Shown: in pieces, positions 606-23,832 of the stretch
Layout of the letters: the number at the start of each line of letters is the position of its first letter
Position numbering within the stretch: position 1 is the stretch's first letter
NCBI GenBank assembly: GCA_963699755.1
Contig: CAVOVB010000002.1
Location: 256,001 to 320,000, forward strand
DNA length: 64,000 nucleotides
Reading direction: 5' to 3'
DNA from: an uncultured delta proteobacterium
GTDB taxonomy: Bacteria > Myxococcota_A > Polyangia > Polyangiales > Houyiibacteriaceae
The notes under the pieces: generated by a model
Told to the model about the DNA's origin: nothing
The model's input: the letters and a program-made list of their open reading frames with translations, nothing else
Databases searched by the model: none
Made by a program: the position numbers and the translations under genes

Positions 606-619
606 TGAAACGTGTTCTA
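606..619. promoter_or_regulatory. KstR-type operator palindrome TGAAACGTGTTCTA (site 1)
   Basis: Exact match to TnnAACnnGTTnnA, about 40 bp upstream of the SCP2 start. Overlaps a minus-strand TTGACG-N17-TAGAAC promoter-like arrangement. Confidence 0.75.
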
Positions 620-693
620 TTTTGCCGAAGGCGCCACGTCAAGCCGCCTCGTTCCCCGGGCCGAAGAAAAGCCTCGAAATGCTGCCGCGCCGG

Positions 694-1062
694 CTACTGC
701 TGATTCGCAGGAGGCACGATCGAGCCGACGACGTGGAGGCCGGCGACGCACTCCTCGCCCACGCGGCGAGCCCAGATGACGCGTGCCCGCTTGAAGAGCA
801 CCCGCCCAGTGTGCGTCGTGATGCGCAAGTCACAGAGCGCGCCGGTCGAGAGCCAGCGGTCGAGGGCGACTTGGATCCCCATCGCGCTCACATCCAAAGC
901 CGTCGCCTGGGTTTGGATCGGCGAAAGGATCTGGATCTTCGCGTCGGAGGCCCAGCGGGTATCATGGCGCCGTTCCTCAGGCGGCGCCGCGCGGCGAACC
1001 TCGGAGTGGCTCCGGCCCGGAGGCGGTGGATTCGAACCTTGTCTCGGAACCTTTGAGCTCAT
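694..1062 (-). CDS. PilZ domain protein (c-di-GMP receptor)
   Basis: RxxxR (ERRHDTR) and DxSxxG (DVSAMG) motifs followed by ARVIW...VAGL. Start chosen at ATG 1062. Confidence 0.75.
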   Translation of the reverse strand: MSSKVPRQGSNPPPPGRSHSEVRRAAPPEERRHDTRWASDAKIQILSPIQTQATALDVSAMGIQVALDRWLSTGALCDLRITTHTGRVLFKRARVIWARRVGEECVAGLHVVGSIVPPANQQ

Positions 1063-1209
1063 GAACGGCCTGGACTCTGCGCTTAGATCATGCCGAGCAG
1101 CCCGGACAATGTCGACTAAGTCACCAAGTCGTGTGCGGCATGTCACAGACCGCTCCCGCGCTGAGCCTCGAGGCGCGGTCTATATCCCTGATCGAGGACT
1201 CGGCTGGGA

Positions 1210-2364
1210 TCAGCCCAGCCGCTCGATGATGGTGACGTTGGCCTGACCGCCACCCTCGCACATCGTCTGGAGACCATAGCGGCCGCCGCTGCGCTCGAGC
1301 TCGTGCAGAAGCGTCGTCATGAGCTTCGCGCCCGTTGCGCCGAGCGGATGGCCGAGGGCGATCGCGCCGCCGTTTACGTTCACCTTGGCGAGGTCGACGT
1401 CGAGCTCCTTGGCCCATGCGCAGACGACTGGTGCAAAGGCTTCGTTGATCTCGACAAGGTCGATGTCATCGAGGCTCATGCCGGACTTCTCCATGGCGTA
1501 GCGAGTCGCTGGGATGGGAGCGGAGAGCATGCGAATCGGATCCTCGCCGCGAACGCTCAAATGATGAATGCGCGCGCGGGGGGTGAGGTTGTGCTCCTTG
1601 AGCGCTTTCTCCGAGACGATGAGAAGCGCGGCGGAACCATCGGAAATCTGGCTGGCCACCGCCGCCGTGAGCCGTCCACCCTCCATGAGGATGGGAAGCG
1701 CGGCCATTTTCTCGAGGGTGGTGTCGGGACGCGGGCCTTCATCGGCGGTCACGTCGCCAAAGGGGATAATCTCACGATCGAATCGGCCCTCCTTCTGTGC
1801 TTGGATCGCGCGTCGATGGCTTTCGAGCGCGAACCTCTCGAGCTCTTCGCGAGAGAGATCCCAGTCCTTGGCGATCATTTCAGCGCCGTAGAACTGATTG
1901 ACGGGCCTGTCGCCATAACGTTCCTTCCAGCCCACCGAAGTGGAGAACGGGTCGGGAATGCCGAGCTCTTTGCCCGCGATCATCGAAGCGCCGATGGGGA
2001 TCATGCTCATGTTCTGAACGCCACCTGCAACGACGACATCTTGTGTGCCGCTCATGACCCCCTGCGCGGCGAAGTGAACCGCCTGCTGCGAGGAACCGCA
2101 CTGGCGGTCGACCGTAACACCTGGAACGTGCTCTGGATAGCCGGCTGCCAGCCAGCAGGTGCGGGCGATGTCCCCGGCCTGGGTGGCTACCGAGTCCACG
2201 CAGCCGAAGACTACGTCATCGACGGCGCCCGGGTCGATCCCCGTGCGTTCGATCACCCCCTTGATCGCGTGGGCGCCGAGGTCGGCGGAGTGGACTTTGC
2301 TCAGGCCGCCCTTCTTTCTTCCGACGGGCGAACGAACTGCTTCGACGATGTATGCATCCGGCAT
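1210..2364 (-). CDS. fadA6: Acetyl-CoA C-acetyltransferase (thiolase), FadA6-like, HIP pathway
   Basis: Thiolase motifs DRQCGSSQQ, NEAFA, GHPLGATG and TMCEGGG. N-terminus AYIVEAVRSPVG-KKGGLS-VHSADLGAH resembles Rv3556c. Cluster context. Confidence 0.88.
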   Translation of the reverse strand: MPDAYIVEAVRSPVGRKKGGLSKVHSADLGAHAIKGVIERTGIDPGAVDDVVFGCVDSVATQAGDIARTCWLAAGYPEHVPGVTVDRQCGSSQQAVHFAAQGVMSGTQDVVVAGGVQNMSMIPIGASMIAGKELGIPDPFSTSVGWKERYGDRPVNQFYGAEMIAKDWDLSREELERFALESHRRAIQAQKEGRFDREIIPFGDVTADEGPRPDTTLEKMAALPILMEGGRLTAAVASQISDGSAALLIVSEKALKEHNLTPRARIHHLSVRGEDPIRMLSAPIPATRYAMEKSGMSLDDIDLVEINEAFAPVVCAWAKELDVDLAKVNVNGGAIALGHPLGATGAKLMTTLLHELERSGGRYGLQTMCEGGGQANVTIIERLG

Positions 2365-2431
2365 CTGAACCTCGCTATGAACTTCTCTTTAGGGGGAGTG
2401 GATGTCGCACGCAAGGCGCTACCCAGTGAGC

Positions 2432-3445
2432 TCAAAGAATGTGACGGCCTATTCGCTCTCGATGATGGGCTGCGTCCCCGTGTGCCGCGGCGAGGGCCCA
2501 AGCCCGTTTCATCCACATGTGGAGGTCGCATTCGATGGTGTAGCCAATCGCGCCATGAACCTGCAGCGCCTCCTTGGCAACGAATTTTGCAGCTTGGCCT
2601 GCATAGATCTTTGCAAGGGAGACATCGACCTCCGCGTCGCGTGAAACAGTGGCCACCGCCCAGGCGGCGCGATAAACCATCGGTCGGGCGAACTCCTGCT
2701 GAATCAGCGCGTTGGCGAGCCGGTGCTTGATCGCCTGCTGTGCACCGATGGGCTTGCCGAACTGCTCTCGGTCTTTGGCGTATTGCACGGCCATGTCCAG
2801 CATGCGTCCCGACAGCCCGAGCAGCTGGGCCGCCGTGGCTAGTGCGGCTCGCTCCCGGCCGAGTGCAAAGAGCGCCTGCGTGTCTACGTCTTCGCGCATG
2901 CGGTACTGCGCGCTGTGCTCAAACGAGACGCGGCCGAGCTCGCGTGTGCGGTCGACCGATTGCTCTGGCTGGGTTGAGACCTCGCTGATGGGCACGCAGT
3001 ACCCGGCCCCGCCTCGCTCGGCGATCAACACGTCCGCCGACGCGGCGTAGGGTACGATCGTTTGGTCTTCGAACGAGACTACGATGCGCGCCTCGCCTGC
3101 CGCGGCGGGGCTGAGCCAGCGCTCCTTCTGCGCATCGGTGCCGGCGGCCTCGATCAGCGGAATTCCAACCGCGACGGTATCAACGATCGGCCCCGGCAAT
3201 GCTGCATAGCCGGCTTCTTCGAGGGGAAGCACGAGGTCAAGCTCGCTCATCCCCATGCCGCCAACGTCCTCGGAAGCCGTCATGCCGATCACGCCGGTCT
3301 CGGCGAGCGTGTCCCAAACCGCGCGGACGCCCTCGGGGCGCCCTTCCCAAGCGGCGCGCACGACCTCGGGCGGACACTCGCGCTGCAAGACTTCGCGAAC
3401 GGTGTCGCGGAGCATCTTCTGGTCGTCAGCGAAAGCGAAATGCAT
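2432..3445 (-). CDS. fadE32: Acyl-CoA dehydrogenase, short subunit of a heteromeric ACAD, FadE32-like
   Basis: ACAD C-terminal motifs REQFGKPIG-QQAIKH and LQVHGAIGYT-E-DLH. 337 aa, directly after the fadE31-like gene. Confidence 0.72.
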   Translation of the reverse strand: MHFAFADDQKMLRDTVREVLQRECPPEVVRAAWEGRPEGVRAVWDTLAETGVIGMTASEDVGGMGMSELDLVLPLEEAGYAALPGPIVDTVAVGIPLIEAAGTDAQKERWLSPAAAGEARIVVSFEDQTIVPYAASADVLIAERGGAGYCVPISEVSTQPEQSVDRTRELGRVSFEHSAQYRMREDVDTQALFALGRERAALATAAQLLGLSGRMLDMAVQYAKDREQFGKPIGAQQAIKHRLANALIQQEFARPMVYRAAWAVATVSRDAEVDVSLAKIYAGQAAKFVAKEALQVHGAIGYTIECDLHMWMKRAWALAAAHGDAAHHRERIGRHIL

Positions 3446-3449
3446 GACG

Positions 3450-4610
3450 CTATTTCCGCGGAAGCCCGAGGACGCGCTCGGCGATGATGTTGCGCTGGAT
3501 TTCGTTCGTGCCGGCGTAGATGGGGCCCGCCAGCGCGAACTGAAAACCCTTCATCCAGCTCCCTGCGTCGACCGCGCTGTCCGAGCCCTCATCGAGCTCG
3601 AGCGCGTCGCCGATGATCGAGAGCGCGGTTTCGTGCGTGCGCACGTCCATCTCGGACCAGAAGACCTTGTTCATACTGGAATCGGGGCCGATCGATTCAC
3701 CCTGCATCATACGCGTGACCGTCTGAAAGGTGAACCAGCGGTAGGCCTGCGCGTCCATCCAGGCCTGAATCACCTGGTCGCGGAGGATCGGATCGGAGCG
3801 GTCGCGGTATCGGTGGTAGAGCTCGATCAGACGCGACGCGGTCGCCATGAACCGACCAGGGCTCCTCAGGCTGAGGCCGCGTTCCGAGCTCGTGGTCGCC
3901 ATCGCGACCTTCCAGCCCTGATTGACCTCTCCGATGATGTCTTTGTCAGGGACAAACACATCTTCGAGGAAGATCTCGGCGAAGCCTTCGTCGCCATCGA
4001 GGCGATCGACGCCGCGCACCGTGGCACCCTCCGCGTGCAGCGGGAACATGAAATAGGTGAGCCCTCGATGACGCGCCTGCTCGGTGTCGGTGCGAAACAG
4101 GCCATAGGCCATATCGCAGAAGGCAGCGCGGGTGGACCAGGTTTTTTGTCCGCTCAGACGCCAGCCGCCATCGACGCGGCGCGCGGTGCTCTTGAGCGAA
4201 GCGAGGTCGCTGCCCGCGTTGGGCTCGGACCATGCCTGGCCCCAGGAGACATCTCCTCGCGCCATCGGGCGAAGAATGCGCTCCTTCTGCTCGTCAGTCC
4301 CGAACTCGAACAAGGTCGGCGCCAATAAGAAGATGCCGTTCTGGGTCACACGGCTTGGAGCATTGGCGCGGTAGTATTCCTCTTCGAAGATGAGCCATTC
4401 GAAGAGCGTGGCCTCACGCCCGCCATACTGCCTGGGCCAGGAGACCGCAGCCCAGCCGGCGTCGAAGAGCTTGTGTTCCCACTCTAGGTGCAGGGCGTAC
4501 CCGTCCCTGGTGTCGCCTGAGGGCAAGGATTCGAGCGGCACGTTGGCTTCGAGCCAGGAGCGGCACTCCTCGCGAAAGGCGTTCTCGGAGTCGGTGAAGT
4601 CGAGGTCCAT
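3450..4610 (-). CDS. fadE31: Acyl-CoA dehydrogenase, FadE31-like
   Basis: WLIFEEEYYRANAP, QAWSEPNAGSDLASL and IYAGTNEIQRNIIAERVLGLPR. Resembles Rv3562. Confidence 0.82.
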   Translation of the reverse strand: MDLDFTDSENAFREECRSWLEANVPLESLPSGDTRDGYALHLEWEHKLFDAGWAAVSWPRQYGGREATLFEWLIFEEEYYRANAPSRVTQNGIFLLAPTLFEFGTDEQKERILRPMARGDVSWGQAWSEPNAGSDLASLKSTARRVDGGWRLSGQKTWSTRAAFCDMAYGLFRTDTEQARHRGLTYFMFPLHAEGATVRGVDRLDGDEGFAEIFLEDVFVPDKDIIGEVNQGWKVAMATTSSERGLSLRSPGRFMATASRLIELYHRYRDRSDPILRDQVIQAWMDAQAYRWFTFQTVTRMMQGESIGPDSSMNKVFWSEMDVRTHETALSIIGDALELDEGSDSAVDAGSWMKGFQFALAGPIYAGTNEIQRNIIAERVLGLPRK

Positions 4611-4619
4611 CGCTTTGGC

Positions 4620-5978
4620 TCAGGCGCCCAACCTTTCGAGCGTTGCCTCCGCCTCGGCCATGATACGTTGGAGAAGCTCGGCAACCGTCGGGATTTCGTC
4701 GATGACGCCAGCGACTTGGCCCGTCGGCAAGATACCGGCTTCGACTTTGCCATCGACCATCGACGCCTTGGTCAACATCGGCGCATTGGCCGCCATCGCG
4801 AGCTGTGCCCAGGTGAGCTCCTGATTCTGCTTCATCGCGATGCCTTCTTCGAGAAGCTCCGGCAGGGAGGTACCGGTGACCTTCATCAATGACAAGGCAT
4901 TGAGTGCAGCTCGGGGAAAACGAGTCAGCGGGCTCGCCTTCTCGAGCTGGTCGATGAGAAGCGTTCGGATGACGCGTTGCGGATAGCCGTCGACGGCCTT
5001 GGTGACGACAGTCCCGTTTGCCTTCGTCTCGACGTAGATTCGCTTGACGTGGTCGGGCACCTGGCTGTCTTTGGTGAGCAGGAAGCGCGTGCCCATGGCG
5101 ATGCCTTCGGCTCCAAATGCAAGCGCCGCCACCAGACCGCGTCCGTCGCGGAAACCCCCGGCGCCGACAACGGGAATGTCGACTGCAGCGGCGACGTCCG
5201 GAATCAGAATCGAGGTGGGAATCTGCCCTGTGTGGCCGCCGCCTTCGTGCCCCTGCGCGATCACCGCATCGACGCCCCAGGCCTGCACCTTTTCGGCGTG
5301 TCGGCGCGCCCCAATCGTCGGCATCGTGAGGACGCCGGCGTCCTTGAGCGTCTTGATGACGCGCTCGCCGGGCGCCTGCGCAAAGCTTGCGACCTTGATC
5401 TTCTCGCGGATGAGAAGCTCCACGCGCTTCATCACGTCGGATTGATCGGCCCGCATGTTCACACCGAACGGCTTGTCGGTCCGGCTCTTGACCTTGGCGA
5501 TCGCCTCCTCGAGCTCGCGGAAGGTCATCGTCGCCGCTGCGAGAATCCCGAGGCCTCCTGCCTGGCTGGTCGCCGAGGTGAGCTTTGCACCGGACACCCA
5601 GCCCATGCCGGTCTGAATGATCGGGTACTCGATGCCGAACATCTCACAGATCCGGGTGTGGAGTGCCGGCTTGGCTTTCGCTGCCTTCTCGGAGGCCGTC
5701 GCTTGGACAGCCGTGACGCGAACGGGCGGCTTACTCTTGCGGGCCTGGGTCTTTGGCTTGGGCGTGACGGACGCCCGCTTCTTCGCAGGCGCCTTGCTGG
5801 CTCGCTTGGCTTTGGGTGGCGCGGACTTCTTCGGGGCGTTTGTCGTGGCCTTCGCTTTCGGCGCAGCGGACGCTCGCTTCTTAGCAGGCGCCTGCGCCAT
5901 GCGCTTGGTCGTTGCCTTGGGCGCCCCAGACGTTCGATTCTGCCTGGGCGCTTTAGTCGTCCTCTTCTCAGCGCTCAT
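4620..5978 (-). CDS. ipdC: IpdC-like FMN-dependent enoyl-CoA reductase (nitronate monooxygenase fold) with a Lys/Ala/Pro-rich N-terminal extension of about 105 aa
   Basis: Core LHTRICEMFGIEYPIIQTGMGWV, QGHEGGGHTG, AGGFRDGRGL and ILPTGQVAG. Start overlaps the ipdB stop (ATGA). Confidence 0.85.
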   Translation of the reverse strand: MSAEKRTTKAPRQNRTSGAPKATTKRMAQAPAKKRASAAPKAKATTNAPKKSAPPKAKRASKAPAKKRASVTPKPKTQARKSKPPVRVTAVQATASEKAAKAKPALHTRICEMFGIEYPIIQTGMGWVSGAKLTSATSQAGGLGILAAATMTFRELEEAIAKVKSRTDKPFGVNMRADQSDVMKRVELLIREKIKVASFAQAPGERVIKTLKDAGVLTMPTIGARRHAEKVQAWGVDAVIAQGHEGGGHTGQIPTSILIPDVAAAVDIPVVGAGGFRDGRGLVAALAFGAEGIAMGTRFLLTKDSQVPDHVKRIYVETKANGTVVTKAVDGYPQRVIRTLLIDQLEKASPLTRFPRAALNALSLMKVTGTSLPELLEEGIAMKQNQELTWAQLAMAANAPMLTKASMVDGKVEAGILPTGQVAGVIDEIPTVAELLQRIMAEAEATLERLGA

Positions 5979-6739
5979 CCTACGACTTCTTTCTGCGCGT
6001 ACCCTTGCGGATCGAGCTCACGCAACACACCAACGAGCTCTGGGGTCGGGACCGGGGTCGTGTCCAGCCCATCTGGGACCACGAGCTCGAAACCCGTGTT
6101 GTCGATCACCTCTTCGAGCACCACGCCTCGATGAAGCGAGACCAAACGCATGCGGTGATCGGGCGTGTTGAAATCGAAGACGCCGAGATTGGTGACCACT
6201 CGCCGAATCTCGTGAAAGCGGCTGCCTGCGGGCCCGAGAGCAGCGGCGCGATCGTACCCCACCCCACTCACCATATCGACCTTTGCCACGAAGACTCGGG
6301 CGTTGTGATTCGGAACCCAGTAGCTGGTCACATGGTTGATTGTGTTGCCGGGCGCTCCGCGAACGCCGAGCAGCTGCGCCTTCGGCCTCTCCCAGGGGCC
6401 GATGCACGCGATGTTCTGATTGCCGAACTGATCGATCTGTGAGGCGCCCATCATCACGTGACGGCGTCCCCACCAGAGGGTGTCGAAGACTGCGCCGAAC
6501 GGCATCCAACCCTCGACGTCGCGATCGCTCGGCTCGACCCCGAGCGGAAGCGCACGACGGAGCAACAAGTTGAACCCATCGGTCATCAGCAAGTCCGGCT
6601 CGAAGGTCGACTTCGCCAAGCGTGCGCCCAGGCTCGGGCTCGTTCCCATCGCGCTGACCATGATCTCGCCGTCGTTTCGAAAGCACTCGGCAATGGCGAG
6701 CGCGCAGACATCGGCGCGGGTGGCTTCGGTGCTGCTCAT
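5975..6739 (-). CDS. ipdB: IpdB, CoA-transferase-like beta subunit (COCHEA-CoA ring hydrolase)
   Basis: TRADVC...TFEPDLLMTDG, GRRHVMMGASQIDQFGNQNI and LLGVRGAPGNTINH. ATG 6739 overlaps the ipdA stop. Confidence 0.88.
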   Translation of the reverse strand: MSSTEATRADVCALAIAECFRNDGEIMVSAMGTSPSLGARLAKSTFEPDLLMTDGFNLLLRRALPLGVEPSDRDVEGWMPFGAVFDTLWWGRRHVMMGASQIDQFGNQNIACIGPWERPKAQLLGVRGAPGNTINHVTSYWVPNHNARVFVAKVDMVSGVGYDRAAALGPAGSRFHEIRRVVTNLGVFDFNTPDHRMRLVSLHRGVVLEEVIDNTGFELVVPDGLDTTPVPTPELVGVLRELDPQGYAQKEVVG

Positions 6740-7581
6740 GATGCCACCGCCTTTTGGTAGTCGGCCTCGCTCGCGTCGAGGTATTTCGCACGGAACGCCT
6801 TCCAAGCTTCTTCGTCGTTTGAGGTCGCGGCATATTCGCGCTGAAATTTCTCGTCACGCGCATAGTCGGGCGAACACTCCGTGAAGTGCGCGCCGCCGGG
6901 CGCCTCGACCACTCCGCTCACCATCATGCGGTTGATCAGCAAGCTCTGGAGCGGCCCGCCGCTGACGAGCTCGTCGGTCGACACGATCTTCTCCGAGCTC
7001 ATGAAGGACTTCTTCGCGGCCATGCAGAAGAGGTTGTCGAAGTAGGGGTCGCGGCCGAGGGCTTGGCCGTTCCCCAGGGCATCCGCGCGATTCATGTGAA
7101 TGAAGGCGACGTCGAGGTTCAGTGCGGGCACGGCGACCAACTCCTCGCCATCGTCGTAGGGCGATATCACGGTCTTGAGGTGCGGATTGATCTTCAGGAC
7201 GTCGGAGCCTAGGCCTGCTCGAGTCGGCAAGAAGGGCAGCCTTTGTGCAGCCGCTCGGAGCCCGAGGAGAAACATCCCCTCATCTAGCTCAACCGCCTGG
7301 AGCGCCCCGTTTTGCCGAGCCTTCCGGAACTGTGGCTCGAGGGGAATCGAATCGAGTGACACGAAGCCGTAGACGGCCTTCTTGAGCTGTCCCGTTGCGC
7401 AGAGGATTCCGATGTCAGGACCGCCGTATGAGACGACCGTCAAGTTCCTCACACCCTTGCGGACCAGCGCTCGTACGAACGCCATCGGCTTACGCCGCGA
7501 GCCCCACCCTCCGATGCCGATTGTCATTCCGTCGGTGACCTCGGCGACGGCTTCATCCACCGTCATGCGTTTGTCTGTCAC
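6736..7581 (-). CDS. ipdA: IpdA, CoA-transferase-like alpha subunit
   Basis: GMTIGIGGWGSRRKPMA, YGFVSLDSIPLEP, ELDEGM and LPFLPTRAGLGSD, typical of the Rv3551 family. Confidence 0.9.
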   Translation of the reverse strand: MTDKRMTVDEAVAEVTDGMTIGIGGWGSRRKPMAFVRALVRKGVRNLTVVSYGGPDIGILCATGQLKKAVYGFVSLDSIPLEPQFRKARQNGALQAVELDEGMFLLGLRAAAQRLPFLPTRAGLGSDVLKINPHLKTVISPYDDGEELVAVPALNLDVAFIHMNRADALGNGQALGRDPYFDNLFCMAAKKSFMSSEKIVSTDELVSGGPLQSLLINRMMVSGVVEAPGGAHFTECSPDYARDEKFQREYAATSNDEEAWKAFRAKYLDASEADYQKAVAS

Positions 7582-7590
7582 GAAGCTACC

Positions 7591-8352
7591 TCACTTCTTG
7601 TCGGTGTTGGGGTCGCGCTTCTCGACGAACGCGTCCCGCGCCTCGTCGGCCACGCCTGCCAAGTTCAGCTCGAAGGTAAAGCCCTGCTCGAATCGGTACG
7701 AACGATTCACGTCCACCGGATCGATGTTGTTGAGGCATTCCTTCGCTACGCGCACGACCCGCGGGATCTTTTTCGTGAAGGTGCGAGCAATTTCCCTCGC
7801 CTTGTCGGCGAGCTGAGCTTCTTCGACGACGGCGTAAACCGAGCCCCAGTTGTGCAGCTCCTCCGCCGTCGCGGCCTCGCAAGTCAGGACCATCGCGCGC
7901 ATCTTGAGCGCCGGAACCAAACGAGCGAGGTGGGTGGCCGCACCGAGCGCGCCCCGATCCACTTCAGGCAATGCAAACCTGGTGCCCTTGGCAGCGATGA
8001 GGATGTCCGAGTTGCCGGCGAGGCCGATGCCGCCACCGACGCAGTAGCCGTGCACGGCGGTGATCACGGGGACCTTGCACTCGTAGACGGCCTTGAACGA
8101 TTCCCAGCAGCCGCGATTGGCCCCAAGAAGGGCATCGAAGCCGTCGTTGCTCTGCATCTCTTTGATGTCGACACCGGCGTTGAAGCCTCGCCCCTCGGCC
8201 CGCAGAATGACCACCCTGGTTTCCGGGTCGTTCCCGGCAGCGCTGATCAAGTCTGCAAGCTCGAACCAGCCGTCTACGGGAATCGCGTTGACCGGGGGAA
8301 AGTCGACGACGATTTCGGCGATTCCATCGATAATTTCATGCGAAATACCCAC
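7591..8352 (-). CDS. echA20: Enoyl-CoA hydratase family ring-cleaving enzyme, EchA20-like
   Basis: PPVNAI, FNAGVDIKE, LPEVDRGALGAATHL and SYRFEQGFTFELN. Directly upstream of ipdAB, as for Rv3550. Confidence 0.88.
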   Translation of the reverse strand: MGISHEIIDGIAEIVVDFPPVNAIPVDGWFELADLISAAGNDPETRVVILRAEGRGFNAGVDIKEMQSNDGFDALLGANRGCWESFKAVYECKVPVITAVHGYCVGGGIGLAGNSDILIAAKGTRFALPEVDRGALGAATHLARLVPALKMRAMVLTCEAATAEELHNWGSVYAVVEEAQLADKAREIARTFTKKIPRVVRVAKECLNNIDPVDVNRSYRFEQGFTFELNLAGVADEARDAFVEKRDPNTDKK

Positions 8353-8380: not shown

Positions 8381-8394
8381 TGAAACGCGTTTCA
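8381..8394. promoter_or_regulatory. KstR-type operator, perfect palindrome TGAAACGCGTTTCA (site 2)
   Basis: 28 bp upstream of the echA20 start, just downstream of a minus-strand TTGACC -35-like hexamer. Confidence 0.8.
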
Positions 8395-8423: not shown

Positions 8424-8888
8424 TCAGGCCACGAGGGTGTCGAGGAACCCCTCGGTCGCCGTCCCGATGGGCCGCGCTATTGGCGCCAGCTCGGCACGGA
8501 CGGCGTCCGCAGCGCTCGGGACGTCGGGGGTCGTGCCGGTGCGAATCAGCGGCGTTCGAAAGCGGTACACGACCTGGAGCACAGCCCGATCGATCGCTTC
8601 GGGCACTACGACCACCACGGAGAAATCGTCTCGTTTCAGCTTGTCACGGCGAGCGTCCAGCCAGCGGGCGAAGGTCTTGGGATGGCGCGCTGCAATCACG
8701 CCGGTGCCACGTTCGTGTCGAACCAGCCCGACGAACGGCAGCGCGTGATCGAGTTGGAAATCGGCGATGCTCAGCATCAGCTCGATTTCGTGGTCCTCGA
8801 TGAGTCGAGGCCGTTTCATGTCGCAAAGTAGGTGAGGCATCCTCACGAAAGCGAGAAATCCCTCGAAGCGCGGGAACGATGAATACAT
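8424..8888 (-). CDS. Hypothetical protein, possibly STAS/SEC14 (SpoIIAA-like) fold; start uncertain
   Basis: Fills the gap divergent from fadD3. Its pattern (F-ARWLD-RR-KL..VVVV..R-VL..Y....P) loosely parallels the 11344 protein. Confidence 0.45.
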   Translation of the reverse strand: MYSSFPRFEGFLAFVRMPHLLCDMKRPRLIEDHEIELMLSIADFQLDHALPFVGLVRHERGTGVIAARHPKTFARWLDARRDKLKRDDFSVVVVVPEAIDRAVLQVVYRFRTPLIRTGTTPDVPSAADAVRAELAPIARPIGTATEGFLDTLVA

Positions 8889-10549: not shown

Positions 10550-11306
10550 TTTTTCGCGAGGCGTGGCGCTGGTCGTTGGGGGGAGCGGAGGTATCGGAGG
10601 CGCGATCGCGCGTGGCTTTGCGGCTGCCGGGGTCACCCTCGCGATCACCTACCGCCGCAACAAGGGCGCGGCCGACGCGGTGGCCGAAGAGATCCGCTCC
10701 GGGGGCGGGGCATGCACGCTGCACCCCGTCGAGCTCGCTGAGCTCGACTCCGTCAAAGCCTGCCTCGAGCAGCTCGTCGAAGAACACGGTCAGATTCACA
10801 CCATCGCGCACGCTGCGGGCTCACACATCGACCAGCCCTACATCAGCCAGCTCACCCCGGAACAGTGGCGGAACACCATGGACTGGGACGTGAACGGTTT
10901 CTTTCATGTGGCGCACGCGGCTCTTCCGCATCTTCGTAGGAGCCGCGGGTCGATCGTCTTCGTCAGCTCGGCAGGCTTGAAACGATATCCGCCGGGCGAC
11001 GTGCTGTCGGTCGCGCCCAAGGCTGCGATCGAAGCTCTCATGCGTGGCATCGCGCGCGAAGAGGGGCGAAACGGCGTTCGCGCCAACAACGTTGCGGTTG
11101 GCGTGGTCGACGCGGGGATGTTCCCCAAGCTCGTCGAGCGGGGTGAGCTCAGCCGGAAATGGATCGACGCGGCCATGCGCAACACAGCGCTTCGCCGCTT
11201 CGGGACTCCCGACGAGGTCGCCGACGCAGTGGTATTCCTGGCCTCCTCCCGCGCTCGCTACATCACCGGTCAGACACTCTTCGTCGACGGGGGCTACACG
11301 TTGTAG
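10542..11306 (+). CDS. SDR family oxidoreductase with atypical active site
   Basis: GGSGGIG Rossmann motif and YITGQTLFVDGG C-terminus. The YxxxK position reads SVAPK. Confidence 0.8.
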   Translation: MADFSRGVALVVGGSGGIGGAIARGFAAAGVTLAITYRRNKGAADAVAEEIRSGGGACTLHPVELAELDSVKACLEQLVEEHGQIHTIAHAAGSHIDQPYISQLTPEQWRNTMDWDVNGFFHVAHAALPHLRRSRGSIVFVSSAGLKRYPPGDVLSVAPKAAIEALMRGIAREEGRNGVRANNVAVGVVDAGMFPKLVERGELSRKWIDAAMRNTALRRFGTPDEVADAVVFLASSRARYITGQTLFVDGGYTL

Positions 11307-11343
11307 CGGCTGAGCCGGCCAATTAGACTGAGCATCGGGGACC

Positions 11344-13451: not shown

Positions 13452-13454
13452 GTC

Positions 13455-15863: not shown

Positions 15864-15877
15864 TGAAACATGTTTCA
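15864..15877. promoter_or_regulatory. KstR-type operator, perfect palindrome TGAAACATGTTTCA (site 3)
   Basis: 12 bp upstream of GTG 15890, which heads the six-gene operon ending in ipdF. Preceded by TTGCAG. Confidence 0.8.
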
Positions 15878-15889
15878 GTCTAGTGGACC

Positions 15890-16912
15890 GTGGCGGAGGT
15901 CAATCGACAGATCTTGTTGAGAAGGCGGCCCGTTGGGGCGCCAACTGCGGGGGATTTCGAAGCTAGCGAGGGCCCTCTCGGACGGCCAGGGACGGGGGAG
16001 GTTCTCCTCCGGAATCTATATCTATCTATCGACCCGGCGATTCGCGGATGGATGAGTGATGCGAAGTCATATCTGCCACCGATTGGGATCGGCGAGCCGA
16101 TTCGAAGCGGGACGCTCTCCCAGATCATCGAATCCAAGGCCGAAGCTTGGCCGGTCGGACAGATCGTCCAGGCCCTGGCTGCTTGGGAGTCGTACAGCGT
16201 GGTTTCCTCTCGAATGCTTCACGGCAGGGTGAAGAGGATGGAGGGGATTCCGCTATCCGCGATGTTGAGCGTCCTCGGGGGCACAGGCCTGACCGCGTAT
16301 TTTGGCTTGCTCGAAGTCGGGAAACCCAAGGAAGGGGAGACCGTTCTGGTGTCCGCCGCGGCGGGCGGCGTGGGATCGATCGTCGGACAGATCGCAAAGG
16401 TCCAAGGCTGTCGGGCCGTAGGACTGACAGGCAGCGACGAGAAGTGCGTTTGGCTGACCGACGAGCTCGGCTACGACGCGGCGATCAACTACAAGACGAC
16501 GGACTTGCGACTTGCCCTGAAGGAAACCTGCCCCGAGGGGGTCGACGTGTTTTTCGACAGCGTGGGCGGCGAGATCCTCAACACGGTTCTGACTCGCCTC
16601 AACTACCACGGTCGTGTGGTCGTCTGCGGCGCGATCTCGCAGATCAACGAGGCAGAGCTCCCGTCCGGGCCCCGCAACTATTTGCAGCTCCTCGCCAAGA
16701 GCGCCCGGATGGAAGGATTCACGACCTTGGATTTCACCACGCGCTATGATGAGGCACGCGCGAACCTCGCGCGTTGGATTCGCGAGGGTCAGATTCAGTA
16801 TCGCGACGAGGTCGCCAAAGGGCTAGATGAGGCTCCGTTGCACTTGCTTCGACTGTTCAGCGGCGAGCATCGAGGAAAACTGATGGTCAAGTTGGCGGAC
16901 GCAGAGGGTTGA
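15890..16912 (+). CDS. NADP-dependent oxidoreductase (MDR; prostaglandin reductase/CurA-like enone reductase)
   Basis: LYLSIDPAIRGWM, GLTAYFGLL, VSAAAGGVGS, DVFFDSVGG and CGAISQ. Confidence 0.88.
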   Translation: MAEVNRQILLRRRPVGAPTAGDFEASEGPLGRPGTGEVLLRNLYLSIDPAIRGWMSDAKSYLPPIGIGEPIRSGTLSQIIESKAEAWPVGQIVQALAAWESYSVVSSRMLHGRVKRMEGIPLSAMLSVLGGTGLTAYFGLLEVGKPKEGETVLVSAAAGGVGSIVGQIAKVQGCRAVGLTGSDEKCVWLTDELGYDAAINYKTTDLRLALKETCPEGVDVFFDSVGGEILNTVLTRLNYHGRVVVCGAISQINEAELPSGPRNYLQLLAKSARMEGFTTLDFTTRYDEARANLARWIREGQIQYRDEVAKGLDEAPLHLLRLFSGEHRGKLMVKLADAEG

Positions 16913-16914
16913 GA

Positions 16915-17820
16915 ATGACTGGCATTTGTGATGGACGGGTGGTGATTGTGACCGGCGCAGGACGCGGCATTGGCCGTGAGCATGCGCTCGAGCTCGCGCG
17001 GCAGGGTGCGAAAGTCGTCGTCAACGACCTCGGTGTGAGCAACAGCGGCGAAGGCGGAGGTCAAGGACCGGCGGACGAAGTCGTGAAAGCGATTCGTGAT
17101 ATGGGCGGCGAGGCGGTGTCCAACGGTGCCGACGTTGCGGACTGGACACAGAGCGAGGCACTGGTGCGACAAGCGATCGACGAGTTCGGGCGCCTCGACG
17201 CGGTCGTGAACAACGCCGGCTTCGTCCGAGACCGCATGTTCGTGAGCTGCAGTGAAGAGGAATGGGATGCGATCATTCGCGTTCACCTCAAGGGGCACTT
17301 CTGCGTCGCCCGACACGCGGCGGCCTATTGGCGAGAGCAGGTCAAGGCCGGTGAGCCGGTCAACGCACGGATCATCAACACGAGCTCGGGCGCGGGAGTG
17401 CTCGGCAGCGTCGGCCAGTCGAGCTACTCCGCCGCGAAGGCGGGCATCGCGACGCTGACCCTGGTGCAGGCGGCCGAGCTCGGCCGCTACGGGATCACCG
17501 CCAACGCGATTTGCCCGATCGCGCGCACGCGAATGACCGAAGGCGCGTTCGGCGACGCGATGAAGGCGCCCGACGAAGGCTTCGACGAGAACGACCCAGC
17601 CAACGTCTCGCCGTTCATCGCCTGGCTCGCCAGCCAGGAGTCGCGCGACGTGACGGGTCGAGTCTGGGAGGTCTTCGGCGGAACAGTCACGCTCTTCGAT
17701 GGCTACCGCCGGGAGCAAACGATGAACATCGGCAAGCGATGGAACCCAGCGGAGCTCGGCCCGGCCGTGAAAGAATTGCTCTCGAAGGCGCAGCCACCTG
17801 TCAGGGTGTACGGCGCATGA
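16915..17820 (+). CDS. SDR oxidoreductase, Rv3548c-like
   Basis: TGAGRGIG, VVVNDLG, NNAGFVRDRM, VHLKGHF and YSAAK. Confidence 0.85.
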   Translation: MTGICDGRVVIVTGAGRGIGREHALELARQGAKVVVNDLGVSNSGEGGGQGPADEVVKAIRDMGGEAVSNGADVADWTQSEALVRQAIDEFGRLDAVVNNAGFVRDRMFVSCSEEEWDAIIRVHLKGHFCVARHAAAYWREQVKAGEPVNARIINTSSGAGVLGSVGQSSYSAAKAGIATLTLVQAAELGRYGITANAICPIARTRMTEGAFGDAMKAPDEGFDENDPANVSPFIAWLASQESRDVTGRVWEVFGGTVTLFDGYRREQTMNIGKRWNPAELGPAVKELLSKAQPPVRVYGA

Positions 17821-18599
17821 GCGAGCCCCTCGACTTCAGCGGCCGGGCTGTACTGATCACCGGCGGAAGCCGTGGGATCGGCCGAGGTATCGCCGAAGCA
17901 TTCCTCGCGGCTGGAGCCGATGTCGCCGTATGCGGCCGCAAAGAGCCCGACGAGCTGCCGAACGCAGGCGGCAAGCGCGCGATCTTCGTCAGCGCCGACG
18001 TTCGGGATGCGGAGCAGGTCGAGAAGATGGTGAACCAAGTGGTCGGGCTCTTGGGGCGACTCGACGTGCTGGTGAACAATGCCGGTGGCGCCCCCTTTGC
18101 GGAGGCAGCGACTGCCTCTCCACGCTTTTCGGAGAAGATCATTCAGCTGAACCTGACAGCGGCGCTTCATTGTGCGCAGCAGGCAAACCGCGTGATGCAG
18201 GGCCAGGACTCCGGCGGCTCGATCATCAATATCGCCAGCGTGTCCGGGGTGCGCCCTTCCCCCGGCACCGCGGCCTACGGCGCCGCAAAGGCGGGGCTCA
18301 TCAACCTGACTGCCACCCTCGCCATCGAGTGGGCTCCCAAAGTGCGCGTCAATTCCATCGCAGCGGGCTTGATTCGTACCGAGCAAGCCCATCTACATTA
18401 CGGCGACGAAGAAGGCATTGCCCGCGTGGCGGCGACGGTCCCGCTACAGCGCCTCGGCACGCCCGCCGACATCGCGGGAGCGTGCATGTTCTTCGCGTCT
18501 CGACTCTCGTCCTACGTGAGCGGCGCCAACCTAGTTCTGCACGGCGGCGGACAAACCCCTGCGTTCCTCTCTGCCGCTAGTGTCAACCAAGGAGACTGA
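17817..18599 (+). CDS. SDR oxidoreductase, Rv3549c-like
   Basis: ATG 17817 overlaps the previous stop. TGGSRGIG, NNAGGAP, ASPRFSEKI, RPSPGTAAYGAAK and EWAPKVRVN. Confidence 0.85.
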   Translation: MSEPLDFSGRAVLITGGSRGIGRGIAEAFLAAGADVAVCGRKEPDELPNAGGKRAIFVSADVRDAEQVEKMVNQVVGLLGRLDVLVNNAGGAPFAEAATASPRFSEKIIQLNLTAALHCAQQANRVMQGQDSGGSIINIASVSGVRPSPGTAAYGAAKAGLINLTATLAIEWAPKVRVNSIAAGLIRTEQAHLHYGDEEGIARVAATVPLQRLGTPADIAGACMFFASRLSSYVSGANLVLHGGGQTPAFLSAASVNQGD

Positions 18600-18603
18600 G
18601 CGA

Positions 18604-19743
18604 ATGGAGTTTTCGTTCTCGGAAGATCAGCATGAGCTTAGAAGAGCCGCACGCCGGTTCCTGGAAGTCCAGTCATCTGAGGAGCGCGTTCGGAGTGCCA
18701 TGGAAACCGAACGAGGCTACGACCCGGCGACCTGGGAGCAGCTATCCGAAGAGCTCGCATGGACGGCGCTGACCATCCCGGAAGCGTACGGGGGCCTCGG
18801 CATGAGCTACCTCGAGCTGCATCCCCTGATGGAGGAGATGGGTCGCGCGCTGCTCTGCTCGCCGTTCTTCTCGACGATTTGTTTGGGCGCCAACGCCCTT
18901 CTTCTCGCTGGTAGCGAAGGCCAGAAGCAGCGCTACCTCCCCGAGATCGCAGCCGGCACTACGAAGCCAACGCTGGCGTACGCCGAGAAGAACAATCGGA
19001 TGGATGCGCTCGGCGTAGAAGCGACCTACTCGCGGAGCGGATCTGGCTACGCCTTGCGTGGCGAGAAGCGCTACGTCCTCGATGGACACACGGCCGAGCT
19101 CTTGGTCGTCGCGGCACGCTCCGAAGGCAGCACCGGCGCCGAGGGGGTCAGCTTGTTCCTCGTCTCGGGCGACGCGCAGGGCCTCGAGCGCCGCTGGCTC
19201 CCAACGATGGACCAGACTCGACGCCTGGCATCTGTGGTGCTCGCTGACGTGGCCATTTCGGACGACGCCCTGCTCGGCGAAGAAGGCAGGGGTTGGGAGC
19301 TCTGTGAAAGGACACTGGATCTGGCGCGGATCGCTCTCGCGGCAGAGCAAGTGGGCGCTGCAGAAATGTGCCTCGAAATGTCGGTCGAATACGCGAAGGT
19401 GCGTAAGCAGTTCGGCCGGCCGATCGGTTCGTTTCAGTCGATCAAGCACAAGTGCGCCGACATGCTGATGATGGTCGAGTCGGCACGCTCCGCGGCCTTC
19501 TACGCCAGCGCGCTGGCGGCGCAGGGTGACGACGGGCTTAGCGAAGCAGCCTCGAGCGCCAAAGCATATTGCTCGGACACCTTCTTCCACTGTGCTGCCG
19601 AGAACATCCAGATTCACGGAGGCATCGGGTTCACCTGGGAGCATGCGGCCCATCTGTACTTCAAGCGCGCCAAGTCGAGCGAGACGCTTCTTGGCGACCC
19701 GTCCTTTCACCGCGAGCGAGTCGCACGATGCATGGGTTTGTGA
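18604..19743 (+). CDS. Acyl-CoA dehydrogenase, partner subunit (FadE33/IpdE2-like)
   Basis: RKQFGRPIGSFQSIKH and IQIHGGIGFTWEH..HLYFKRA. Translationally coupled (TGATG) to the fadE30-like gene. Confidence 0.75.
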   Translation: MEFSFSEDQHELRRAARRFLEVQSSEERVRSAMETERGYDPATWEQLSEELAWTALTIPEAYGGLGMSYLELHPLMEEMGRALLCSPFFSTICLGANALLLAGSEGQKQRYLPEIAAGTTKPTLAYAEKNNRMDALGVEATYSRSGSGYALRGEKRYVLDGHTAELLVVAARSEGSTGAEGVSLFLVSGDAQGLERRWLPTMDQTRRLASVVLADVAISDDALLGEEGRGWELCERTLDLARIALAAEQVGAAEMCLEMSVEYAKVRKQFGRPIGSFQSIKHKCADMLMMVESARSAAFYASALAAQGDDGLSEAASSAKAYCSDTFFHCAAENIQIHGGIGFTWEHAAHLYFKRAKSSETLLGDPSFHRERVARCMGL

Positions 19744-20918
19744 TGGAGCTACAGCTAAACGAACGAGAGAAGGCGTTTCGCAAAGAGGCTCGCACCTGGT
19801 TGCAGGAGCAGCTCACAGGCCCGTTCAAGAGCCTCCAAGGCCGTGGCGCCTCGGGCGACCAGGACACCTACGTTGAAGAGCGAATTGCTTGGGGCAAGGT
19901 CATGGGCGCCGCTGGTTGGAACTGCATTGGCTGGCCCAAGGAGTTCGGTGGGCGCGGCTGCTCGATCAAGGAGGAAGCGGTTTTCAACGAGGAGTACGTC
20001 CGCGCGAACGGTCCCGGCAACATAGGTCACATAGGCGAGACCCTGCTCGGACCGACCTTGATCCACTTCGGCTCGCCGGAACAGCAGAAGCGCTTCTTGC
20101 CACCGATCGTCTCCTGCGACGAGATCTGGTGTCAGGGGTACTCGGAACCCGGCGCGGGGTCGGATCTCGCCAATGTGCAGACGAAAGCAAGCCTGGTCGG
20201 AGACGAGTGGATCATCGAGGGGCAAAAGATCTGGACCTCGGGTGCGCAGTACTCGGACTGGTGCTTCGTGCTCTGCCGGACGGACGCCGAGGCCCCGAAG
20301 CACCGAGGCATCAGCTATATCTTGGTTCCGATGAAACAGGACGGCGTCGAGGTCCGACCAATCAAGCAAATGGGCGGCAGCTCAGAGTTTGCGGAGGTCT
20401 TCTTCGACGGCGCCAAGGCCGAGAAGGACCACGTCGTTGGCGGCGTGAACAACGGATGGAAAGTTGCCATGGGCACGCTCGCCTTCGAGCGTGGTGCGTC
20501 GACGCTCGGGCAGCAGTACCTCTTTCAGAAGGAATTCGAGCAAGTGGTAGCCGTTGCCAAGCGGACAGGCGCCGCGGAAGATCCGATCTTCCGCCAGCGA
20601 ATCGCAGACGCCTGGATTGGGCTCAAGATCATGCGGGTCAACGCACTCCGAATGCTCGAGCACGAAGGCGCCGACCTAAACCGAGAAGCGCTCATCAGCA
20701 AGCTCTACTGGTCGAACTGGCACCGCGACCTCGGCAAGCTCGCCATGGACCTGCTCGGTCCCGAAGCCGAGCTCCTCGATGGCGCACCCTACCAGCTGAC
20801 TGCGATGCAGAAGTGGTATCTCTTTTCGCGAGCGGACACGATCTACGCGGGCTCGAATCAAATTCAACGAAACATCATTGGCGAGCGAGGACTTGGGCTA
20901 CCAAAGGAGCCGCGATGA
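19743..20918 (+). CDS. fadE30: Acyl-CoA dehydrogenase FadE30/IpdE1-like
   Basis: HIGETLLGPTL, WCQGYSEPGAGSDLANV, LAFERG and LFSRADTIYAGSNQIQRNII. Resembles Rv3560c. Confidence 0.85.
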   Translation: MELQLNEREKAFRKEARTWLQEQLTGPFKSLQGRGASGDQDTYVEERIAWGKVMGAAGWNCIGWPKEFGGRGCSIKEEAVFNEEYVRANGPGNIGHIGETLLGPTLIHFGSPEQQKRFLPPIVSCDEIWCQGYSEPGAGSDLANVQTKASLVGDEWIIEGQKIWTSGAQYSDWCFVLCRTDAEAPKHRGISYILVPMKQDGVEVRPIKQMGGSSEFAEVFFDGAKAEKDHVVGGVNNGWKVAMGTLAFERGASTLGQQYLFQKEFEQVVAVAKRTGAAEDPIFRQRIADAWIGLKIMRVNALRMLEHEGADLNREALISKLYWSNWHRDLGKLAMDLLGPEAELLDGAPYQLTAMQKWYLFSRADTIYAGSNQIQRNIIGERGLGLPKEPR

Positions 20919-21697
20919 GCAACAAACCCACATACGTCGGCGGGCACGGCCTGCTCGAAGGTAAGACCGTCCTCGTCACAGCGGCCGCGGGCACAGGCAT
21001 CGGATTCGCCACTGCGATTCGCTGCGCGGAAGAGGGGGCTTCGGGTCTGATGATTAGCGACATCCACGAGCGACGACTCGGTGAAGCCGCCGACAAGATC
21101 GAAGCCGAAACCAGCGTCCGCCCGGAGACCGTCATCTGCAACGTCACCAATGAGGACGAAGTCCGGGCGATGTTCGAACTGGCCACTGAAAAGATGGGGC
21201 ACGTCGACGTGTTGATGAACAACGCCGGGCTCGGAGGCTACGCCAAGATCGTCGACATGACCGATGAGCAGTGGCACCTGGTGCTCGACGTCACCCTCAA
21301 TGGCTGCTTCCGTTGCACCCGCGCGGCGCTCAAGCACATGATGCCGCGCGGGAGGGGCGCGATCGTGAACAATGCCTCGGTCCTCGGCTGGCGCGCCCAA
21401 GAAGGGCAGTCACACTACGCGGCCGCGAAGGCGGGCGTCATGGCGCTCACCCGATGCGCGGCCATCGAAGCCGCTGACGCCAACGTGCGCGTCAATTGCG
21501 TCTCGCCATCGCTCGCGATGCACCCGTTCCTCGAGAAGGTCACCCCACCCGGCCTGCTCGAAGAGCTCCAAAAGCGGGAGGCATTCGGCCGCGGTGCCGA
21601 GCCCTGGGAGATTTCGAACGTCATGGTCTTCTTGGCGAGCGACTACAGCTCCTACATGACGGGCGAGGTGGTCTCGGTGTCGAGCCAGCGCGCCTGA
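20915..21697 (+). CDS. ipdF: IpdF, 5-oxo-HIP-CoA reductase (SDR)
   Basis: Diagnostic GHGLL.GK.VLVTAAAGTGIG, SDIHERRL, LGWRAQ..QSHYAAAK and YMTGEVVSVSSQRA. Confidence 0.9.
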   Translation: MSNKPTYVGGHGLLEGKTVLVTAAAGTGIGFATAIRCAEEGASGLMISDIHERRLGEAADKIEAETSVRPETVICNVTNEDEVRAMFELATEKMGHVDVLMNNAGLGGYAKIVDMTDEQWHLVLDVTLNGCFRCTRAALKHMMPRGRGAIVNNASVLGWRAQEGQSHYAAAKAGVMALTRCAAIEAADANVRVNCVSPSLAMHPFLEKVTPPGLLEELQKREAFGRGAEPWEISNVMVFLASDYSSYMTGEVVSVSSQRA

Positions 21698-21699
21698 GA

Positions 21700-22677
21700 C
21701 TAGACGCGGCTCTTCCGGACCTGCCAGGCGTCGGAATACCTCAACATGTACCAGCGGATGAGCGGCGCAAACATCCGCACCAGGGGCCGCGTGAAGCGTG
21801 ATGCTTTCCGCATCTGGCCAATGAACTCCTCGAAGCTGGTTCGCTGGTAGGCCAAGAGCGATTGACTCTCCTTGGTGTCGAGCCAATCGCAGTAGTAGAT
21901 GCCGCTGCCATAGGCTTCGACCGGAAAACGCCCTACGCCCGTCGCGTCGAACATCGCACCATAGAGCTCACGAAACGTCAGTCGGCAGCTCTCGCCGCCG
22001 CCGATCATCAAGGTCTTGCCGACCGCCTCCGGGTTTTCGATGGCGCGCACCTGAGCAAGCGCAACGTCCTCGGGATGCACCCATTCGAGACGCGTCTCCG
22101 GGTTGATGCTGAAGAGCAAGCGAAAGACGTCCGGCGAGAGGTCGCCCGCCGCTGCTTTGACCCCTACCGACACGCCGATTCGAAAGATCACGTACGGCAG
22201 GCCCGATTCCCGAAGGAGCCGCTCGCACTCGGCCTTGTTCGAGGTATAGAAGTCGGTCCCGATCGCGGGGTCCTTGCCGGTCAGCGGTGGTCCGCCCGGC
22301 GCACGGGGCCCGCAGACCGACAGGGACGACGCGAAGACGATGACCGGGGGACGTTCCCTACGTTTCATCGCTTCCAGGAGGTTCTGGGTACCCCCCACGT
22401 TGACCGCGTACGCCAGGTCCGGATGGCTCTCCGAGACCGGCGCCAGCACGCCCGCGTTGTGGATGATCGCATCGGCCTCCAGGACTGCCGGCCCGATGTC
22501 CCCGGCCGATCGGATGTCGCCCCAGACGACTCGAATCCTCTCCGCGAACCGCCTTGCTGCCTTCTCGTTTCGGCGATTCGGCACGTCAAAGGCGGTCACC
22601 GAATATCCCTCTTTCAAGAGACGCTCGATGGCCTCTTGTCCAAGCCGACCAAACGCCCCCGTCACCAGCACGCGCAT
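21700..22677 (-). CDS. NAD-dependent epimerase/dehydratase (extended SDR; 3-beta-HSD-like)
   Basis: MRVLVTGAFGRLG, IHNAG, VNVGGT and YTSNK (YxxxK). Start at ATG 22677. Confidence 0.8.
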   Translation of the reverse strand: MRVLVTGAFGRLGQEAIERLLKEGYSVTAFDVPNRRNEKAARRFAERIRVVWGDIRSAGDIGPAVLEADAIIHNAGVLAPVSESHPDLAYAVNVGGTQNLLEAMKRRERPPVIVFASSLSVCGPRAPGGPPLTGKDPAIGTDFYTSNKAECERLLRESGLPYVIFRIGVSVGVKAAAGDLSPDVFRLLFSINPETRLEWVHPEDVALAQVRAIENPEAVGKTLMIGGGESCRLTFRELYGAMFDATGVGRFPVEAYGSGIYYCDWLDTKESQSLLAYQRTSFEEFIGQMRKASRFTRPLVRMFAPLIRWYMLRYSDAWQVRKSRV

Positions 22678-22714
22678 CCGCGCAGGCTGACCTGCAGCCG
22701 TGCGCGCTTCAAAT

Positions 22715-22728
22715 TGAAACACGTTCTT
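22715..22728. promoter_or_regulatory. KstR-type operator variant TGAAACACGTTCTT (site 4)
   Basis: One mismatch (last base) to TnnAACnnGTTnnA. Lies in the 104-bp gap between the divergent extended SDR and the LLM/F420 operon. Confidence 0.6.
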
Positions 22729-23825: not shown

Positions 23826-23832
23826 GGCAGCG

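Follow-up and report, generated by a model that had tools for sequence, protein, structure and literature searches.

The window, a 64-kb stretch of the genome of an uncultured bacterium of the phylum Myxococcota (genome G000, contig C2, positions 256001-320000), carries operons for breakdown of the C and D rings of sterols, a unit for coenzyme F420 maturation and, in front of them, copies of the 14-bp palindrome of the TetR-family repressor KstR (Table 1). In the textbook model, control of sterol catabolism is split between two repressors, KstR for the early steps and KstR2 for the late ones. From sequence comparisons we conclude that in this host a single KstR-family TetR protein probably shuts off the side-chain, A/B-ring and C/D-ring operons together; we found no KstR2 orthologue. 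Genes were called with a codon-model script. The gene set for catabolism of the C/D-ring intermediate HIP (3aα-H-4α(3'-propanoate)-7aβ-methylhexahydro-1,5-indanedione) is present: EchA20, IpdAB, IpdC, FadD3, FadA6, short-chain dehydrogenases/reductases (SDRs) and acyl-CoA dehydrogenases (ACADs). Six of the seven counterparts found in Streptomyces for proteins of the echA20 operon are 56-74% identical to them, and a search of the host genome with one EchA13-like query gave no match.

The strict KstR pattern that we used is TnnAACnnGTTnnA. The sites at 606, 8381 and 15864 match it exactly, and the site at 22715 (TGAAACACGTTCTT), which ends in TT, is one base off. An initial annotation of the window had reported these four 14-mers, and all are present, all are intergenic and all lie 12-53 bp from an operon start, within its figure of about 55 bp; the flanks that it described as shared (AAG before three sites, GTC after two) are there too. 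It erred in taking the four as the whole regulon, since they are part of a larger genome-wide set, in overlooking another strict match at 51952, and in assigning site 606 to C/D-ring genes, because this site heads the side-chain/kshA/kstR operon instead. The window thus has four strict matches (606, 8381, 15864 and 51952) against 0.21 expected, and none of 100 shuffled sequences reached four; the match at 51952 is probably due to chance and outside the regulon. The 606 14-mer is identical to the M. tuberculosis sites at Rv1894c and Rv3545c, which were positive in electrophoretic mobility shift assays (EMSA; PMC1995591, accessible text, Table 3). In accordance with the initial annotation, the window has no exact match to the KstR2 box (AnCAAGnnCTTGnT); its five one-mismatch matches (about one expected) are all inside called open reading frames (ORFs). 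Beside or within each KstR-type box a -35-like hexamer is fixed: TTGACG at -23 for 606 (TTGAC in 34/34), TTGACC at -13 for 8381, TTGCA upstream at about -10 for 15864, and TTGAA at -1 for 22715, where the first five bases of the box are the -35 box itself. These conserved hexamers would fit steric repression of putative sigma-70-type promoters. Between 21000 and 36500, a scan for consensus promoters yielded no more than expected by chance.

Table 1. Operators and genes in the window (coordinates are window positions).
Position	Strand	Feature	Remarks
1..200	-	5' part of second gene of kstR operon, DUF35/OB-type	label from synteny and similarity to a Nocardia locus
228..563	-	SCP2 sterol-carrier domain gene, first gene of kstR operon	PF02036; gaps of 0-37 bp down to kstR
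606..619		KstR-type operator, 42 bp from SCP2-domain gene start (563, -)	heads SCP2-DUF35/OB-two lipid-transfer thiolases-fadD19-like-kshA-kstR; operon extends left of window
1210..8352	-	C/D-ring operon	PRK07938 and PRK07801 over cut-off
1210-2364	-	FadA6-type thiolase	
3450-4610 and 2432-3445	-	ACAD pair	FadE31/32-like by synteny
4620-5900	-	ipdC	
5975-6739	-	ipdB	
6736-7581	-	ipdA	against 6CO6/6CON, E about 1e-104
7591-8352	-	echA20	
8381..8394		KstR-type operator, 28 bp before echA20 start (8352, -)	heads echA20-ipdA-ipdB-ipdC-ACAD pair-thiolase
8424..8819	-	small gene of unknown function between echA20 operator and fadD3	gap of 630-790 bp similar in 28/29 genus loci
8984..14675	+	fadD3 (HIP-CoA ligase family), SDR, small ORF, CasG-like CoA ligase, thiolase	NF005801 over cut-off; no operator of its own
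14900-15802	+	CPBP-family intramembrane protease-like gene between two C/D units	weak MrtA match
15864..15877		KstR-type operator, 12 bp before ORF start 15890 (+)	heads second C/D-ring unit, 15890-21697
15890..21697	+	NADP-dependent reductase, SDRs, ACAD pair	PRK07791, PRK07856 and PRK07831 over cut-off; PRK07831 SDR likely IpdF
16909	+	presumed Rv3548c-type SDR, 303 aa	
17817	+	presumed Rv3549c-type SDR	
within 15890..21697	+	IpdE2/IpdE1-like ACAD pair	
21700..22677	-	NAD-dependent epimerase/3beta-hydroxysteroid dehydrogenase-family gene	divergent from F420 unit
22715..22728		one-mismatch, labile KstR-type operator, 53 bp from 22782 (+) and 37 bp from 22677 (-)	in -35/-10 spacer of F420 unit promoter
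22782..26826	+	Rv3520c-family F420-dependent luciferase-like monooxygenase (LLM)-type oxidoreductase, npdG, cofE, cofD, cofC	TIGR03559, TIGR01915, TIGR01916, TIGR01819 and TIGR03552 over cut-off
27673..30068	-	cofH and cofG (Fo synthase), outside boxed unit	TIGR03551 and TIGR03550 over cut-off
51952..51965		fourth strict match to TnnAACnnGTTnnA, probably chance	inside sulfotransferase ORF

The labels Rv3548c-type and Rv3549c-type are our assumption, made in part from synteny with actinobacterial loci.

The initial annotation found no TetR gene in the window and proposed that the repressor is encoded elsewhere, perhaps beyond the left edge, and this is where we located it: a TetR gene lies at C2:249882-250460, 5.5 kb to the left. 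It is the seventh gene of the tightly packed operon under site 606; we infer that it would be co-transcribed with that operon, and its product likely represses it. The best PDB match of the protein is M. tuberculosis KstR (E = 1e-22, against 8e-4 for KstR2; profile 3e-28), and no other protein of the genome has a TetR_C_20 domain. Annotated Tsukamurella KstR has its best match in the host genome in the same protein (1e-27, the next being 4e-6), and the two are reciprocal best matches. A tree groups 32 Myxococcota homologues with two actinobacterial KstRs (SH-aLRT 95), and the helix-turn-helix shows almost no variation among 20 homologues. The repressor's closest relatives carry the titles Myxococcales, Polyangiales or Deltaproteobacteria, one of them, an SG8_38 protein, being 86% identical. 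KstR homologues were found in 15 of the 17 echA20-first genomes searched. The protein is best described as a distant KstR orthologue, and not as a member of the KstR equivalog family. The description of the box as KstR-type is borne out, and so, by a BamA-family gene and kinship with Polyangiales/SG8-38, is the supposition that the host is diderm.

Across the host genome (5.35 Mb, 62.6% GC, 100% complete, 9% contaminated) there are 48 matches to the strict KstR box, of which 25 are intergenic against a background of 12.3% (P = 3e-11), and this box ranks first for intergenic enrichment among 256 equally shaped palindromes. The KstR2 box has 26 matches, one of which is intergenic. A profile seeded on the four window sites gave 25 sites of at least 19.5 bits in 23 promoter regions, all intergenic, a count that is partly circular because the profile was refined on intergenic matches. 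Sorting families by hand, we found that 15 of the 23 regions head steroid-pathway families: kstD-like, kshA units, kshB-like, hsaA-hsaEGF, hsaB-like, hsaD-like, cytochrome P450, ChsH2-OB/ltp, a flavoprotein with a cholesterol-oxidase-like gene, and the four window units. Several of the steroid-gene matches fall below NCBIfam cut-offs, so these names are family-level. Six regions head general lipid or oxidation genes (an ACAD pair, fadA/fadB/fadL, an acyltransferase with WS/DGAT, two copies of an aldehyde dehydrogenase-esterase unit, and a nitronate-monooxygenase-family gene), and the other two lie before genes for a PaaX-like regulator and a GMC oxidase. The motif that the initial annotation proposed to follow genome-wide is therefore enriched between genes, with nearly all of the approximately 25 sites before sterol or lipid genes. 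Two boxed operons are present twice, with 90-92% protein identity, probably as a result of contamination of the genome assembly.

Six Rieske genes with a KshA_C domain, on contigs C1, C2 and C7, are under KstR boxes; two are weakly similar to 4beta-methylsterol monooxygenase, and two of the six are probably contamination duplicates. In the boxed unit at C1:481136-485406 (L038:3136-7406), folE (GTP cyclohydrolase I) sits between a PRK07121 flavoprotein gene and the cholesterol-oxidase-like gene.

The promoter of echA20 is where the two circuits can be compared directly, because in mycobacteria KstR2 boxes are located at Rv3549c/echA20, at kstR2 and at Rv3560c/fadD3 (PMC3068626, accessible text). 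We sampled 34 genomes of the host's genus (55 in total), of which 33 had the flank, and, from a draw of 401 genomes, 89 IpdA-positive genomes outside the genus, of which 84 were analysed. A strict KstR box lies within 150 bp of echA20 in 33/33 genus genomes and in 22/22 other genomes of the phylum Myxococcota in which echA20 is the first gene, from 10 families, although such kin genomes are not independent samples. The 15864 site is kept in 30/30 genus loci (the best 30 of 37 genomes with the gene), and the 606 site in 33/33 and an hsaA site in 35/35 related loci (in each case those of 51 loci that had the flank). At these promoters the motif is conserved upstream of orthologous operons. As for the KstR2 box, the strict pattern is unfit as a negative test, since it missed the echA20 site in 6/6 actinobacterial controls, so we allowed up to two mismatches. 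On this basis the six named Actinobacteria have no strict KstR box at echA20 and five have a KstR2 box (0.12 expected). In a metagenomic control of 80 loci found with Streptomyces IpdA, 34 were echA20-first with enough flank: 29 have a KstR2-type box, four have neither box, and one (L421) has a perfect KstR box in the region 1235-1250 before echA20. L421 is an actinobacterial-type locus nested among KstR2-box carriers, an independent case, so the swap also occurs sporadically outside Myxococcota.

The converse search gave little sign of KstR2. The window's echA20 and fadD3 promoters have no KstR2 box within two mismatches, and this loose test was positive in 2/33 genus echA20 loci (0.84 expected) and in 8/22 loci of other Myxococcota, where six of the hits result from reading a KstR or KstR-like box in a register shifted by three bases. 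Within the C/D clusters of four Actinobacteria are TetR genes that share 42-86% identity; that of Nonomuraea has a KstR2 box in front and a YRMIRDTIW stretch resembling the KstR2-5 motif in the accessible text of PMC13176608. Among 53 chosen genomes we found no KstR2 orthologue in the genus or in other echA20-first genomes, where the Nonomuraea query reached at most 31% identity with E-values of 5e-19 or worse; in two ipdA-first genomes of the same set it reached 36-37%. The best matches in the host genome itself were 26-28% identical to the Nonomuraea query and 36% over 151 residues to the best Streptomyces query. No strong TetR_C_24 match exists in the host genome (best 1.7e-7), and there are such matches in 4/55 genus genomes and 5/49 chosen genomes. 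We rejected those of the genus as KstR2, since the one examined is 27-30% identical to actinobacterial KstR2s and adjoins an SDR gene, though its best PDB match is KstR2. Of the four genus genomes concerned, three had the flank, and all three keep the KstR box.

Several results weigh against control of the whole pathway by KstR, in addition to the circularity and the kinship already mentioned. The protein scores 124.4 bits on the NCBIfam KstR equivalog model NF033703, against a cut-off of 280, and is approximately 32-34% identical to actinobacterial KstR; because of both, its ligand may differ. Genomes G103 and G127 (95-97% complete, echA20-first and boxed) gave no KstR match at 1e-12, and the metagenomic echA20-first loci L446 and L451, on the Myxococcota side of the tree, have neither box. 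hsaC has no box of its own and is upstream of the box that precedes hsaD. fadD3, the entry to HIP catabolism, likewise has no box of its own in the genus loci and none other within 1 kb. Its start is 632 bp from echA20 in the window and 632-786 bp away in 28/29 genus loci; in one genus genome the gap is missing, with fadD3 139 bp from echA20 and sharing the box. The initial proposal of KstR-type control of HIP catabolism is therefore supported for two C/D-ring operons, which are boxed where Actinobacteria have the KstR2 box, and not for fadD3. Finally, the wiring is not phylum-wide: 62 of the 84 non-genus IpdA genomes have an ipdA-first order, mostly with another operator.

In these lineages of the phylum Myxococcota, with the order ipdA-ipdB-ipdC-echA20, the 350 bp before ipdA contain the palindrome AACGATACGTATCGTT in 41 of the 62 loci (for example L161, L167, L168, L179, L180, L188, L190, L196, L200 and L204-L207), a KstR box in two, and neither in 19, one of which lacks the flank. 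AACGATACGTATCGTT often occupies the whole 17 bp that separate TTTACA from a TATTAT-like hexamer, and occurs once in each of four of the five genomes searched; most genomes with it also have KstR. Candidates for its regulator were rejected: the TetR genes near ipdA-first clusters are not homologous to each other, and the EdcR operator is unlike AACGATACGTATCGTT by eye. Two ipdA-first genomes have a KstR-type box (L200:7467 and L207:7474) before a gene for a pyrroloquinoline quinone (PQQ)-dependent dehydrogenase, just upstream of ipdA. An IpdAB tree leaves the split between Myxococcota and Actinobacteria unresolved and a FastTree of IpdA separates them, and we drew no direction of evolution from either.

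The initial annotation went further, proposing that KstR controls F420 supply together with HIP catabolism. As one conserved design this is unlikely, even though the LLM-npdG-cofE order is kept in 28/30 genus loci (the remaining two being incomplete) and the host's box occupies the promoter spacer. Among these loci, the best 30 of 46 genomes, the 22715-type box reaches at least 15 bits in 12 and at least 10 bits in 15. These 15 boxed or partly boxed loci are scattered, requiring seven changes on the gene tree compared with 10.3 for shuffled labels, and the spacer varies between flanking promoter elements, TCAAATTGAA and CCTGnTA, that do not change. Neither cofG nor cofH, which lie on the opposite strand, is preceded by a site of at least 5 bits. 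The Rv3520c-family link was also known already, the KstR site at Rv3520c/Rv3521 of M. tuberculosis being EMSA-positive (PMC1995591, Table 3 in the accessible text). The F420 link is secondary, labile and lost in many relatives; part of F420 maturation would probably be co-induced, in some species only. Farther along the window (38404-48984, minus strand), a run of menaquinone genes of the classical type (menE/C/A/H/D/F/G-like by Pfam) is joined to genes for HMG-CoA reductase and a polyprenyl synthase.

A two-tier scheme, with KstR on all the boxes and a second regulator sensing HIP-CoA and co-controlling the C/D operons, seems to us quite improbable. In its favour, the genome has 34 TetR genes and a boxed gene for a PaaX-like regulator, conservation around 8381 and 15864 extends beyond the 14 bp, and in Tsukamurella echA20 is preceded by a KstR2 site as well as by a KstR-like site with one mismatch. 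The conserved flanks, however, can be read as -35/-10 elements, we found neither a KstR2 orthologue nor a KstR2 box at the C/D promoters, the second operator of the ipdA-first lineages (AACGATACGTATCGTT) has no match in the host genome, and the PaaX-like gene's repeat, ATTAC-N27-GTAAT, occurs only before the gene itself. For this last reason we also rejected the PaaX-like protein as regulator of fadD3 or of AACGATACGTATCGTT. The gene (C2:205198-206048; L032:15198-16048) combines the repeat with a KstR box that is present in four of six genus orthologues, a possible regulatory cascade, and the repeat also precedes PaaX-like homologues in other families.

PsrA-like fatty-acid regulators recognise GAAAC-Nn-GTTTC, and such a TetR protein might bind the C/D sites while KstR binds TAGAAC-type sites. 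Perfect TGAAACnnGTTTCA sites are indeed present at just two places in the genome, the C/D operators at 8381 and 15864, which keep that exact form across the genus. We think this explanation very improbable, because the genome has no detected TetR_C_30 (PF17939) protein, the echA20 box of other families takes all the KstR half-site forms (TAGAAC, TGGAAC and TGAAAC), and TGAAAC half-sites occur in EMSA-positive mycobacterial KstR probes (accessible text of PMC1995591). An origin of the sites by chance, or simply as conserved promoter hexamers (TTGAAA or TAGAAC) that serve no repressor, could be suggested by the -35 box within 22715, but is hardly credible and largely refuted by the enrichment and conservation counts, with full 14-bp palindromes at 25 intergenic places, in several promoter registers and in 10 families.

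Among known systems, the KstR (Rv3574) regulon of Mycobacterium (Kendall 2007; PMC1995591, as far as accessible) has the same palindrome, promoter overlap and self-regulation, and similar targets: a Rieske oxygenase, hsa genes, fadD19/ltp, a P450, a nitronate-monooxygenase-family gene, an aldehyde dehydrogenase and an Rv3520c-type LLM. The host differs in being a diderm member of Myxococcota with a repressor about one-third identical, in having kstR inside the side-chain operon whereas mycobacterial kstR is divergent from fadE34, in including echA20-ipdABC and the SDR/IpdE unit in the regulon, and in having npdG-cofE-cofD-cofC after the LLM gene and an outer-membrane FadL-family target. With the KstR2 (Rv3557c) regulon (Kendall 2010, PMC3068626; Crowe 2017, PMC5380842; accessible portions) it shares the C/D genes, the order echA20-ipdA-ipdB-ipdC and an operator at the same promoter; it differs in the KstR box in place of the KstR2 box, in our failure to find a KstR2 orthologue, and in fadD3 being unboxed in the genus. 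TeiR, HsdR and EdcR also control steroid catabolism in Gram-negative bacteria, EdcR being a TetR repressor that overlaps the -10 element (PMC8399759 and PMC8700777, text available), though these are different proteins with different operators. According to the accessible text of PMC8399759, bile-acid-degrading Proteobacteria lack homologues of KstR and KstR2. A full-text search, with most subscription journals and supplements outside its scope (supplements of surveys could list such genomes), found no literature on KstR or steroid degradation in Myxococcota; the accessible part of bioRxiv 10.64898/2026.07.10.737566 mentions neither steroid nor F420.

Taken together, it is likely that the Myxococcota KstR regulon has absorbed most of the KstR2 regulon, as a variant of the known circuit. 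A KstR dimer would sit on the -35/-10 region and block RNA polymerase, and an early side-chain-bearing 3-oxo-steroid CoA ester would release it, as in mycobacteria, where the effector is 3-oxocholest-4-en-26-oyl-CoA (PMC8700777, accessible text; effectors are also given in PMC8399759). The whole pathway would then open in one step, with kstR feeding back on itself. The arginine in the M. tuberculosis stretch IARVISDVW, a putative ligand contact, aligns with a serine in the host protein. FadD3 and Fo synthase would stay outside the direct regulon, and the F420 unit would be an optional add-on, gained or lost through changes in the spacer of an otherwise fixed promoter. We infer that sterol is a growth substrate of the host. 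A bolder version, which we regard as doubtful, is that in at least 10 Myxococcota families the complete aerobic sterol pathway is under one KstR, with a wider ligand range than its mycobacterial counterpart, that detects both early steroid-CoA esters and HIP-CoA. It would represent an undivided circuit to which Actinobacteria (with KstR2) and the ipdA-first lineages (with a AACGATACGTATCGTT-binding regulator) each added a second switch; the unboxed FadD3 would keep making the HIP-CoA signal.

As deduced from sequence, the circuit is of an ordinary kind. What it adds is that, across a broad span of the phylogeny, the same genes and the same promoter bear the box of the other repressor; this suggests that the late switch of sterol catabolism is swappable, and the 14-bp box may serve as a tag for locating sterol genes in uncultured Myxococcota. 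If KstR does not sense HIP-CoA, only side-chain-bearing sterols would be expected to induce ring C/D cleavage in these bacteria; HIP or androgens that neighbours release would not.

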